From the IMG/VR virus record IMGVR_UViG_2671181012_000008, positions 1 to 5,392 of that record: a stretch of 5,392 bases of DNA; one strand, 5' to 3'. The position numbers were made by a program. Positions 3,001-5,392 of the stretch are shown piece by piece (within the stretch, counting starts at the first letter, position 1; each line of letters begins with the position of its first letter). The stretch is from a virus (lineage: Duplodnaviria > Heunggongvirae > Uroviricota > Caudoviricetes).

Positions 3001-5392
3001 TGCCTTTGTTTCGTCATTACTGTCAGTATCACTGCTTAACTGCACCACACCTTTCTGCGTCGTGCTGGCATCCCGCTGGCTGACCGTATCCGGTTTGTTT
3101 TTTGTGCTGTAATCCACCCGCCAGTGGAAATACTGTGTGTCGCCGTAAACCGTACAGGTACAGACCGTGCCATTAATAAACCCCGTTGCACCGTATTCGC
3201 CAATGGTGACCCGGACTATGGCAGCCTCATACGTTCCCATCACCTCAATGACACAGCCACCCAGATTGAGTTTTCCCGGCCCGACATCCGTGATGACTTT
3301 ATTGAATCCCGCAGGCAGTGATGCCTTCATCATCCAGTAAGGCTGGTCAAATGCCCCTTTTTCTTTCAGCCAGGCGACAAACTCACTCGTGGTCCATTCA
3401 CCGGCCCCCGTATGAATGTCCCGCCCGTATACTCTGGCTGCTCCCACGGTGTTCAGAAACTTCACCTTATCCGGGATATCGTCACCGTTTTTCGCTTTCT
3501 CCAGGCATCCGTCCGCTTTGTCCATTGCCGCTTTCACCGCTTTCGGGGTGGCTGCCTTCGTTTCATCATCACTGTCCGTTGCGCTGCTTAACTGCACAAT
3601 TCCCTTCTGTGCCGTCGTCGCATCCGGCCCTCCCGGCTCACCTTTTTCGCCCTTCTCTCCCCGCTCACCTTTCACACCCTGAAGCCCCTGTGGTCCTGTC
3701 TCACCACGCTCACCCTTTGGCCCCCGCTCGCCGGTATCGCCTTTTGGCCCGGGAATACCCTGTGGCCCCGTGTCTCCCTTATCCCCCTTCGGTCCCCTCG
3801 CATTCTCTGCCCGTTTCTTCGCTTCCTCTGCACTCGCCGCTGACGCTTCCGCACGTTTCAGGATTTCCGCGGCCACCGCTTCCAGCTCTGCAAGGGCTTT
3901 CGGGTAATACTGTGCATCCTCCAGGTCCATCAGAAATTTATTCAGCGTTCCCGGTGCCGAATCCGCCTTCACCAGAATGTCACCCACATATGACGGCGCG
4001 TACCCTTCCGTGTTCAGCGTCACCCGGTACAACCCCGGCTCAACATCCATACTGTAACTGCCGGTTTCCCCCGGCTGACCATACGCCACCGTGGTGACAA
4101 TCACCGTCTCCGTTGTGCGGCGCGCTTTCAGCTCTATCGTGCATCCCGGTACCGGTTTTCCCGTACCATCCTTCAGCACACCCGATATTCTGACTGTCAT
4201 GGATTTCCCCCATAAAAAAAACCGCAGTACCGGTTTCCCGGCCTGCGGTAAAATTTGCGGTTTGTTGGTGTTAAAACGGTGCCATCCGGCTGACCACCCT
4301 CAGCAACCGGTCGGCGGGGGATATTCTCCCCCGCCACGGTTTCTTACTGCTTACACTGTAAGAACGCCGCAATCTCCGCGCCCGCTATCCGGAACCGGAA
4401 CTCGCACAGTGAAGTGTGGGTGATCCAGATAATGAGCACTACCGTGATACAAATCACGGTGGTTTTTAACGGTTTTTGCGACATAAACGCTTGCTCCTTT
4501 TACGGAGAGGCGCTAACCTTTCACTTGCTTAGGATGAATGGTCAGGCCTCGGGTTAAACATGAATGTTTGTCCGGGGCCTTTTCACATCCGGCCTTCAGG
4601 TGTTCCCTCCGGCCATCAGCCAAAGGCACCCGCGCATACTGTACGGTTTTTGTCTCCTTCCGGCAATCCGTATTCCGGCTGCCTGTCACGATCTCCGGGT
4701 AAAACCGGAATCTGTCGATTTCGCCACCATGAGAGTAAAGGCGTCATATCTCCACCGCACCAGCTCTCTCTTTCTCCCTTCCACATCCCCCATATTGCCA
4801 GGACCACCTTCAACTCTCATTGTCACTGTAATCCGTGTATCTCCCCCTCCTGCCACCACATCCCATACTCCTGAAACGGTGTCCCCGAGGTTGGTGTACG
4901 TGTTAACAGCATTGCCATTTCTGTCAAAACGACCTGAAAAACCCGTATCAGCAATTCTCGGTTCTGCCTTAATGACAACTCTTCCGTTAATCTCTATCGT
5001 CAGTGTTCCTGAATAGAAAAAGAAGGGAAGGAGTATCAGCTTGCGATCAAACGAAACATCATCAGCAAGAGATACCTCCGCCTTAAAGATGACATAACCC
5101 TCTCCATACTTGTGGTTCGTAATATGGAGCGTGCCATCACGAGGTTCGAAGGAATAGCCCTTGACGATATCACCGATGATTCTGTCTGCGCTAATGGTTC
5201 CTTTAACAACGCAGTTTTCTGCAATGGTCACGTTATTCAGCGTGCCCGAGTTCGCACTGATATGTCCGCTGATGTCAGCATTGCGGGCCGTCAGCCTGCC
5301 CTCCGGCGTCAGGGAGAACGTCGGGGGATTGCCGGACGAGGTGATGCTTACTGCAAACAGTCGCTTCAGGAACACATCGTTCATGAACAGCT

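Follow-up and report, generated by a model that had tools for sequence, protein, structure and literature searches.

The hok/sok module on the minus strand of the viral DNA analysed here (Caudoviricetes; positions 1 to 5,392 of IMG/VR virus record IMGVR_UViG_2671181012_000008, the 5,392-nucleotide (nt) stretch called the window) belongs to a clade of loci that lack mok, the leader open reading frame (ORF) overlapping the start of hok. The hok/sok system is the textbook type I toxin-antitoxin module, and coupling of toxin translation to mok is treated as integral to it. Throughout the clade mok is absent, the other regulatory elements are conserved and covary, and Hok is under selection. The window module appears to be an intact representative of a widespread Escherichia coli phage lineage. 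The best explanation, to which we assign a probability of roughly 55%, is a mok-less variant of hok/sok whose switch would act directly on the Shine-Dalgarno (SD) sequence of hok through RNA refolding. Folding models are the source of this relay.

Absence of mok from the window and its relatives

All three minus-strand frames of the leader close before the toxin start, as originally predicted. The final stop ahead of the hok ATG (4484) is TAA at 4502..4500 in the hok frame, TAG at 4515..4513 in the +1 frame, and TAA at 4531..4529 in the +2 frame (all minus strand). No ATG, GTG, or TTG occurs 3' of the last leader stop in any of the three minus-strand frames (4631..4485), and no ORF therefore enters hok. 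The TAA at 4502..4500 and the TAG at 4515..4513 had both been described as in-frame stops; this holds for the TAA but not for the TAG, which lies in the +1 frame, the frame of mok in R1. Likewise, the leader had been said to contain only mini-ORFs of 2 to 10 codons. This is correct for ATG starts, which give ORFs of 6 codons (4616) and 10 codons (4561) and an ATG-TGA start-stop (4588), and short ORFs also begin at GTG 4586 (10 codons) and GTG 4524 (3 codons). It is not correct for the longer non-ATG ORFs, which begin at GTG 4629 (38 codons) and TTG 4623 (36 codons) and both stop at the TAG at 4515..4513. Both start inside the tac stem, at mRNA positions +3 and +9; neither has an SD or is conserved.

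Dinucleotide shuffles of the 147-nt leader contained an ATG-initiated ORF reaching the hok ATG in 64% of cases, making the absence of such an ORF unremarkable (P ~0.36). An ORF with an ATG, GTG, or TTG start reached hok in 96% of shuffles, making full closure unusual (P ~0.04); closure of the leader is thus real and somewhat beyond chance. A GTG ORF of 58 codons (4689..4513, minus strand), whose start overlaps the stop codon of gpJ (GTGA, 4689..4686), spans the whole leader to the TAG. In the phage late transcript it could pass ribosomes on from gpJ to a point immediately ahead of the hok SD hairpin. As a conserved leader it was rejected, being found in only 3 of the examined loci.

The position of mok is readily recognized in canonical loci. 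R1 hok, K-12 hokB, K-12 hokC, and hokW of phage 933W each have GAGG-N7/8-ATG at -57/-58, followed by a frame that remains open across the hok start. The mok frame is the hok frame in hokC and hokW, and the +1 frame in R1 and hokB. The window leader can be aligned with that of R1 over its full length and retains the GAGG of the mok SD, with no overlapping leader ORF of the R1 type. We collected 91 related loci from annotated phages and E. coli genomes, GTDB genomes (including Salmonella and E. albertii), and IMG/VR; these yielded 60 distinct sequences of leader plus coding sequence (CDS), of which 59 were analysed. None of the 59 distinct leaders has an ATG or GTG 3–11 nt downstream of GAGG, and one has a TTG. 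Exactly where R1 has its mok start the window has ATT, a codon confined at this place to the window's own subtype, other subtypes having neither a start nor a near-cognate codon there. The comparison with homologous loci that the original prediction had proposed as its check thus recovered mok in R1 hok, hokB, hokC, and hokW, and found none at the mok position in the clade. Clade-wide absence of mok, together with its recovery in the controls by the same test, bears out the suggestion that regulation differs from the R1 paradigm.

Upstream ATGs are not conserved across the leaders; in the window they are those at 4588 (the ATG-TGA) and, within the loop of a hairpin, 4561. An alignment of 48 sequences shows the TAG at 4515..4513 to be invariant, but one-base indels between the SD and the ATG vary its distance from the hok ATG (29, 30, or 31 nt) and with it the frame that it closes (0, 1, or 2). 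Among 58 distinct leaders, ATG-initiated ORFs run into hok in 9 (21.4 expected from shuffles), and ORFs with any of the three starts in 18 (49.8 expected). The lack of a start at the mok position, the unconserved ATGs, the frame-shifting indels, and the depletion of ORFs together argue that no leader ORF is under selection in this clade. The leader comparison likewise indicates that absence of mok is a property of the whole, well-conserved clade and not a result of local decay.

The spacer between the SD and the ATG is polymorphic in a T-run (4485..4487, minus strand). GCGTTTATG is the form in the window and about 10 further distinct leaders, and close relatives carry GCGTTATG; with the extra base the SD spacing is 9 instead of 8 nt, and every upstream frame moves relative to hok. 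A sequencing or frame error hiding an intact ORF, named beforehand as an observation that would overturn the prediction, is excluded, as the extra T of GCGTTTATG occurs in many independent records. Neither allele makes an overlapping ORF. An open +1 frame running through hok (54 codons, 4512..4354) was considered as a relic of mok and rejected, because 22–25% of synonymous resamplings of Hok equal it and because it closes at +80 in 19 of 34 distinct CDS.

The stops have their origin in other elements. The TAG lies within AGGTTAG, the complement of which (TAACCT, 4514..4519, plus strand) is the -10 box of Sok, and it is base-paired in both hairpins. Within the Sok-target hairpin the partner of GGUUAG is CUGACC or CUAAC, and this pairing forces a UGA or UAA into the 5' arm directly after GAGG. 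The in-frame TAA at 4502..4500 falls in the GUAAAA loop of the SD hairpin. Given these positions in paired helices and in the Sok promoter, the stops are by-products of conserved RNA and promoter elements. They may also have been selected to shield hok from upstream ribosomes; the locus lies inside a phage late operon.

Conservation of the regulatory elements and of Hok

The elements of the locus are listed in Table 1. The sole Rfam match in the window is to RF01794 (named 'sok', in fact the hok leader/Sok region) at 4631..4473 (minus strand; 55.0 bits, E 1.4e-10), just below the gathering score of 59. The match begins at 4631, the inferred start of hok transcription. Eleven relatives from the clade score 35.6–51.9 bits, all below threshold, whereas canonical loci score 88.9–118.3 bits; by this measure the clade (36–55 bits) is set apart from canonical loci (89–118 bits). 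The putative hok promoter lies in a block conserved in relatives (ATTGCC...AAAAACCGTA.A.TATGCG) and was not called by a simple consensus scan because its score is under 9/12. In the minimum free energy (MFE) structure of 4631..4213, nucleotides 2–21 pair with the fbi region (-183.6 kcal/mol, z = -8.1), as expected for a tac/fbi interaction.

Table 1. Features of the hok/sok locus in the window (probabilities, folds, and RNA ends are predictions)
Feature	Position	Strand	Basis
Putative hok promoter: -35 TTGCCG (4666..4661), 17-nt spacer, -10 TACAGT (4643..4638); start ~4631	4666..4638	minus	sequence
Predicted full-length hok mRNA, 5' GGGUGCC... to U-run after fbi	4631..4273	minus	Rfam match, MFE; ends by homology with R1 398/361
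tac; pairs with fbi in full-length RNA, can pair with ucb once truncated	4631..4612	minus	MFE
ucb (AAAAGGCCCCGG); pairs with former mok SD in full-length RNA	4583..4572	minus	P 0.98 in homologues; covariation
Former mok SD, GAGG; conserved, no start codon after it	4550..4547	minus	aligns with mok SD of R1, hokB, hokC, hokW
Sok-target hairpin: base GAGGC/GCCUC (former SD/dcb), middle CUGACC/GGUUAG, variable apical helix, loop CCUAAGCAA	4550..4507	minus	fold
ATT at exact R1 mok start position (GAGG + 7 nt); +1 frame, TAG 8 codons on	4539..4537	minus	alignment
Conserved TAG closing the +1 frame in the window	4515..4513	minus	invariant in 48-sequence alignment
dcb GCCUC (4511..4507) fused to anti-SD CUCC (4507..4504) (GCGCCUCUCC)	4511..4504	minus	pair probabilities, covariation (GCGUCUC)
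hok SD AAGGAG; GGAG held by CUCC in small hairpin with loop GUAAAA; opening cost 6.5 kcal/mol (full-length), 3.8 (truncated), 6.5 (truncated with Sok bound)	4499..4494	minus	folding
hok toxin gene, 46 amino acids, MSQKPLKTTVICITVVLIIWITHTSLCEFRFRIAGAEIAAFLQCKQ	4484..4344	minus	Pfam HOK_GEF; RefSeq Hok/Gef family protein
GC-rich 3' stem-loop, predicted 3' end of truncated active mRNA	4335..4313	minus	position matches R1 hairpin ending at nt 361
fbi (GGUCAGCCGGAUGGCACC); pairs with 5' tac	4295..4278	minus	full-length MFE; GGCACC motif conserved in relatives
Sok promoter: -35 TTGCTC (4491..4496), 17-nt spacer, -10 TAACCT (4514..4519); overlaps hok SD and TAG	4491..4519	plus	
Predicted Sok antisense RNA, ~58 nt; 5' single-stranded tail, GC-rich terminator hairpin, UUUU	4526..4583	plus	-21.5 kcal/mol fold

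Around the former mok SD, the sequence predicts a cis-antisense Sok RNA with its own promoter and terminator, its expression being a prediction as well. Promoter-like and terminator-like elements of this architecture occur in all 40 distinct leaders compared, with RNA ends placed by inference. In each of the 40, the promoter has a -35 box of TTGnnn or TTTACT, a spacer of 17–18 nt, and a -10 box of TAACCT or TATCCT. The R1 counterpart (TTGCGC/TATCCT) is homologous and in the same place.

The Sok-target hairpin has a predicted stability of -20.0 kcal/mol in the window and is formed by all 26 distinct variants (-15.5 to -22 kcal/mol); its apical helix shows numerous compensatory changes. The alternate pairing of the former mok SD with ucb and dcb is accompanied by covariation. 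One lineage has a coupled triple change (ucb GUCCCGG, SD GAGAC, dcb GCGUCUC), and another has an A-U replacement in ucb/SD (AGCCCC with GAGGCU); one triple and one double change amount to few independent events. R1, hokB, and hokW have a small spacer hairpin between dcb and the hok SD; the clade lacks it, and dcb is consequently fused to the anti-SD (GCGCCUCUCC). In addition to the pairing of the hok SD, the bases ahead of the hok AUG are predicted to pair with UAGCGC. For 48 leaders aligned with MAFFT, the consensus structure from RNAalifold was poor (19 pairs, -9.5 kcal/mol) because the variable apical helix and 1-nt shifts misalign columns; folding of individual sequences and motif-anchored tabulation were used instead.

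The apical helices of the Sok target (4515..4541, minus strand) differ widely yet are compensated among loci L017, L027, L028, and L036, whose Hok sequences are 96–100% identical. Examples are CCATTCAT/GTGAAAGG, CTTTCGAT/ATTGAAGG, and GTTCTTCC/GAAGAAGG. The variable apical region encodes the single-stranded 5' tail of Sok, and its variation looks like a diversification of Sok/target specificity, which perhaps avoids cross-talk among the several hok copies of one genome.

The window toxin matches Pfam PF01848 (HOK_GEF) with 42.2 bits (E 6e-11, cut-off 22). It scores 37–38 bits against the NCBIfam HokA and Hok models, short of their respective cut-offs of 89 and 73. Residues C12, L26, C27, E28, A39, A40, F41, and C44 are invariant among clade members, and the 46-residue protein fits the description of a small hydrophobic peptide with a conserved Cys/Glu core and a C-terminal periplasmic tail. 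For 534 sequence pairs, the median dN (nonsynonymous divergence) was 0.175 and the median dS (synonymous divergence) 0.655; the median dN/dS of 0.26 is the mark of purifying selection on the Hok ORF. A few copies show individual alterations: a frameshift in hok in L051 (601..739, ending in ...IAGRGDCGVLTV before the stop), a deletion that takes out codons near the hok start in L046, and a GTG in place of the ATG start in L045.

Folding models of the switch and alternative mechanisms

The original prediction held that the toxin relies on a strong SD of its own. The SD is indeed present (AAGGAG, 4499..4494, 9 nt ahead of the ATG), but the reliance as stated is too simple. In the full-length mRNA of the window, GGAG (4497..4494) is predicted to be sequestered by CUCC (4507..4504) with a probability (P) of 0.99, and something must therefore open the SD hairpin. 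Nor is the strength of the SD evidence of independence, as R1 hok has an equally strong AAGGAG yet needs mok translation up to the hok SD (PMC9841398).

We examined how the hairpin might be opened by partition-function folding of 41–43 distinct homologues in three states: full-length, 3'-truncated, and truncated with the Sok target blocked. Pairing of GAGG with ucb had a probability of 0.98 in the full-length state, 0.40 in the truncated state, and 0.00 with the Sok target blocked. Pairing of GAGG with dcb was predicted in the truncated state (0.57) and had a probability of 0.00 in each of the other two. The probability of the anti-SD/hok SD pairing was 0.94 in full-length RNA, 0.73 in truncated RNA, and again 0.94 upon blocking. 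The cost of opening the hok SD followed suit, at 6.8, 3.8, and 6.5 kcal/mol, respectively (43 homologues). For the whole translation initiation region (TIR), the opening cost falls on truncation in 42 of 43 homologues and rises with Sok in 39 of 43. Forcing the tac/ucb pairing in the window RNA costs 11.1 kcal/mol in the full-length form versus 1.2 kcal/mol in the truncated form. Applied to R1, hokB, and hokW, this model reproduces the known behaviour, an opening of the mok TIR (by 6–11 kcal/mol), and leaves the hok SD unchanged. In folding models, the switch of the clade thus appears to be coupled to the hok SD and not, as in canonical loci, to a mok TIR.

These predictions suggest the following mechanism. 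In full-length RNA, GAGG would be held by ucb, and the dcb/anti-SD would pair with the hok SD as well as with the nucleotides preceding the AUG, leaving the toxin untranslated. After 3' trimming, tac would capture ucb and GAGG would move to dcb; the anti-SD/SD hairpin would be weakened, and hok would be translated from its own SD. Binding of Sok to the region of GAGG and the target hairpin would displace GAGG from dcb and return the dcb/anti-SD to the hok SD, and would probably also trigger cleavage by RNase III. The former mok SD would serve as an anti-anti-SD, in an R1-type switch wired directly to the hok SD. The stronger form of this proposal is one we hold tentatively, at somewhat under even odds: that a large lineage of prophage-borne modules dispensed with mok entirely, and that 3' processing and Sok control toxin translation purely by RNA refolding, with the ancestral mok SD competing with the hok SD for the fused dcb/anti-SD.

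Several observations weigh against control through refolding at the hok SD. The evidence for the mechanism consists of thermodynamic predictions. The canonical controls folded were three (R1, hokB, and hokW), K-12 hokA and hokC having been left out because their flanks are disrupted by insertion sequences. The shift predicted for the window itself is small: the probability of the anti-SD/SD pairing goes from 0.99 to 0.90 on truncation, and the cost of opening the TIR from 10.9 to 9.0 kcal/mol. The 'active' TIR would therefore still require about 9 kcal/mol to open, and a helper may be needed. Nine of the 58 distinct leaders, close relatives of the window among them, have an ATG-initiated ORF that crosses the hok start; L028 and L036 have a 69-codon ORF in the R1 mok frame, starting from the ATG equivalent to 4561. 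The near-cognate ATT in the window stands precisely at the mok start. Lastly, the homologues share phylogeny, and counts among them are not independent.

The ATT raises the possibility that a cryptic mini-ORF has replaced mok. Translation of 8 codons from ATT 4539, 3 codons from GTG 4524, or 10 codons from ATG 4561 would end at the TAG at 4515..4513 or the TAA at 4531..4529, melt the 5' arm of the SD hairpin, and permit initiation at hok; Sok would block the mini-ORF. Besides the spacing of the ATT (exactly GAGG + 7 nt), the arrangement of the TAG, 28 nt before the hok ATG and abutting the anti-SD arm, would suit such a role, and GTG-AAA-GGT-TAG recurs among many relatives. However, the candidate starts are not conserved: 933W-type leaders have GTA-GAA-GGT-TAG, others have ATT-GAA or GAA-GAA, and the ATG or GTG that should follow GAGG is found in 0 of 59 leaders. 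ATG 4561 has no SD, and the ORF it opens is 10, 13, 31, or 69 codons long among near-identical loci. Moreover, R1 Hok translation is lost when mok ORFs stop before the hok start (PMC9841398). The comparative data disfavour this mechanism, and we consider it unlikely.

We likewise hold out little prospect for ribosome standby of the kind seen in tisB/istR-1. Here GAGG, once freed from ucb, would be a landing site without a start codon for the 30S subunit, which would slide into the hok TIR, with Sok competing for the site. A conserved, start-less, SD-like GAGG does lie 45–50 nt upstream of a structured TIR and inside the Sok target. The target (4583..4526) is upstream of the hok SD (4499..4494) and does not overlap the structured TIR, the arrangement typical of standby, and the roughly 9 kcal/mol still needed to open the hok TIR in truncated RNA would be explained. 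On the other hand, the conservation of GAGG already has an explanation in the helices that it forms with ucb and dcb and in the terminator stem of Sok. GAGG is also predicted to be paired in both RNA forms, with ucb in the full-length RNA and with dcb or ucb in the truncated RNA, and in the latter it is predicted to be bound to dcb and not to be single-stranded.

The third alternative, raised in the original prediction as partial decay, is a relic that lost mok by mutation, whose native mRNA cannot yield Hok and which persists as passive prophage cargo; this is improbable and disfavoured by the comparative data, for although R1 Hok synthesis is abolished by loss of the mok start or by early mok stops (PMC9841398), the Rfam score is under the gathering threshold (55 vs 59), and some copies are truly broken (the L051 frameshift and the L046 deletion), the mok-less state is common to all 59 distinct leaders, across E. 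coli, E. albertii, and Salmonella and three phage contexts, the Hok ORF is retained with a dN/dS of ~0.26, and both promoters, tac/fbi, ucb/SD/dcb, and the Sok gene are conserved, with covariation of the regulatory helices.

Genomic setting and relation to known systems

A 471-base query from the window is 100% identical to the E. coli chromosome NZ_AP045178, in which RefSeq gives the gene order gpJ tail-tip protein, Hok/Gef family protein, and prophage tail fibre. The window hok/sok is a moron flanked by tail gene J and by the gene for the side tail fibre (stf). DNA similar to the locus occurs in 1530 of 5426 complete E. coli genomes, and the clade is seen in three phage contexts: J/hok/stf, lom/hok (Shiga toxin (Stx) phages), and ogr/hok (P2-like prophages). 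Downstream of fbi in the window is a strong hairpin with a U8 tract (CCGCAGGCCGGGAAACCGGUACUGCGGUUUUUUUU; 4249..4213, minus strand), 13 nt before the ATG of the tail-fibre gene (4200). The hok transcript may in fact terminate at this hairpin, or the hairpin may insulate the moron from the late operon; it is absent from the minus-strand list of a simple terminator scan. The tail-fibre ORF itself (2464..4200, minus strand; 578 amino acids) has two long collagen-like Gly-X-Y repeat blocks flanking duplicated motifs.

Stx phages 933W, Sp5, and 75/02 have two hok loci each, a canonical hokW/mokW/sokW and a mok-less copy of the present clade adjoining lom (for example, L002 1171..1311 and L004 571..711). 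The lom-adjacent copy is named 'MokW-like host killing' in RefSeq phage records, though its CDS is Hok itself, and has no annotation at all in the 933W record AF125520. The possibility that the Stx-phage relative is the published hokW was rejected, as the published hokW is the separate canonical locus in the same phages. Loci of the clade were also found in assemblies labelled Planococcaceae metagenome-assembled genome (L010), Vagococcus sp. (L011), and Xanthomonas pisi (L013). Their leaders (-75..+6) and Hok are identical to those of the E. coli P2-like loci L008 or L009 or of the IMG/VR 933W-type locus L066; L013 is an 857-bp contig, and L010 has a masked run of N. Contamination or mis-binning, and not a genuine host range, is the probable explanation. 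In Salmonella enterica subsp. diarizonae (L015), the small RNA STnc540 (Rfam RF02082, 186 bits; 909..1095, minus strand) lies about 170 nt downstream of the hok homologue.

The window locus resembles R1 hok/sok (parB), hokB/mokB/sokB, and hokC/mokC/sokC in its Hok/Gef toxin, its tac/fbi pair, its ucb, SD, and dcb boxes, and its antisense Sok, the promoter of which is placed alike (-10 in the AGGTTAG/AGGATAG motif) and the terminator of which is the same. With R1 it has further in common that tac/fbi pairing locks the full-length RNA, that ucb sequesters a GAGG, and that the Sok target is a long hairpin with GAGGC/GCCUC at its base. As in R1, a 3' stem-loop defines the truncated form, and the leader aligns position by position. 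The window departs from these three systems in having no mok start after GAGG and all frames closed, in the fusion of dcb and anti-SD without an intervening hairpin, and in the length of Hok (46 vs 49–52 amino acids). The hokW/sokW/mokW locus of Stx phages 933W/Sp5 is likewise a prophage-borne hok/sok module (Takada et al. 2021, PMC8621323), but it is a separate locus with a Hok of 51 amino acids (MKQQKAM...), an annotated in-frame mokW, and an Rfam score of 113 bits.

The logic proposed for the window locus has parallels outside the family. In aapA/IsoA of Helicobacter pylori, which does without a leader peptide, the toxin has its own SD sequestered; the primary transcript is locked by a long-distance 5'-3' interaction and becomes active on 3' processing (PMC9841398). 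Direct control of the toxin SD would be common to both systems, although they have no sequence homology and differ in toxin family and in the binding site of the antitoxin. In tisB/istR-1, where no leader ORF is involved either, the site bound by the antitoxin lies well upstream of the structured TIR of the toxin (review PMC4147584). The window is similar in having its antitoxin target well upstream of a structured TIR, with no leader ORF involved; unlike the window genes, tisB and istR-1 are divergently encoded and do not overlap, and 5' rather than 3' processing activates the toxin mRNA.

Our searches of the available literature library for mok-less hok loci found nothing relevant. One hok gene without mok is reportedly hokD (relF) of E. 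coli K-12. This gene has lost the whole upstream leader and sok and is seen as a truncated relic, whereas the present clade retains sok together with an entire leader. In the latest survey of Hok diversity Mok went unanalysed, as being hard to predict (bioRxiv 10.1101/2025.08.07.668861).

A widespread and conserved mok-less clade indicates that the leader peptide is dispensable in nature, and it explains both the sub-threshold Rfam scores and the loci that have been missed or mislabelled ('MokW-like'). It also provides a defined set of sequences for testing how Sok controls hok without a leader ORF, and it bears on how prophage morons within late operons insulate a toxin gene from upstream translation. 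If control through refolding at the hok SD is true, mok would not be obligatory in hok/sok, and the clade would be a natural example of how a single RNA family evolved from coupling through a leader peptide to direct riboregulation.

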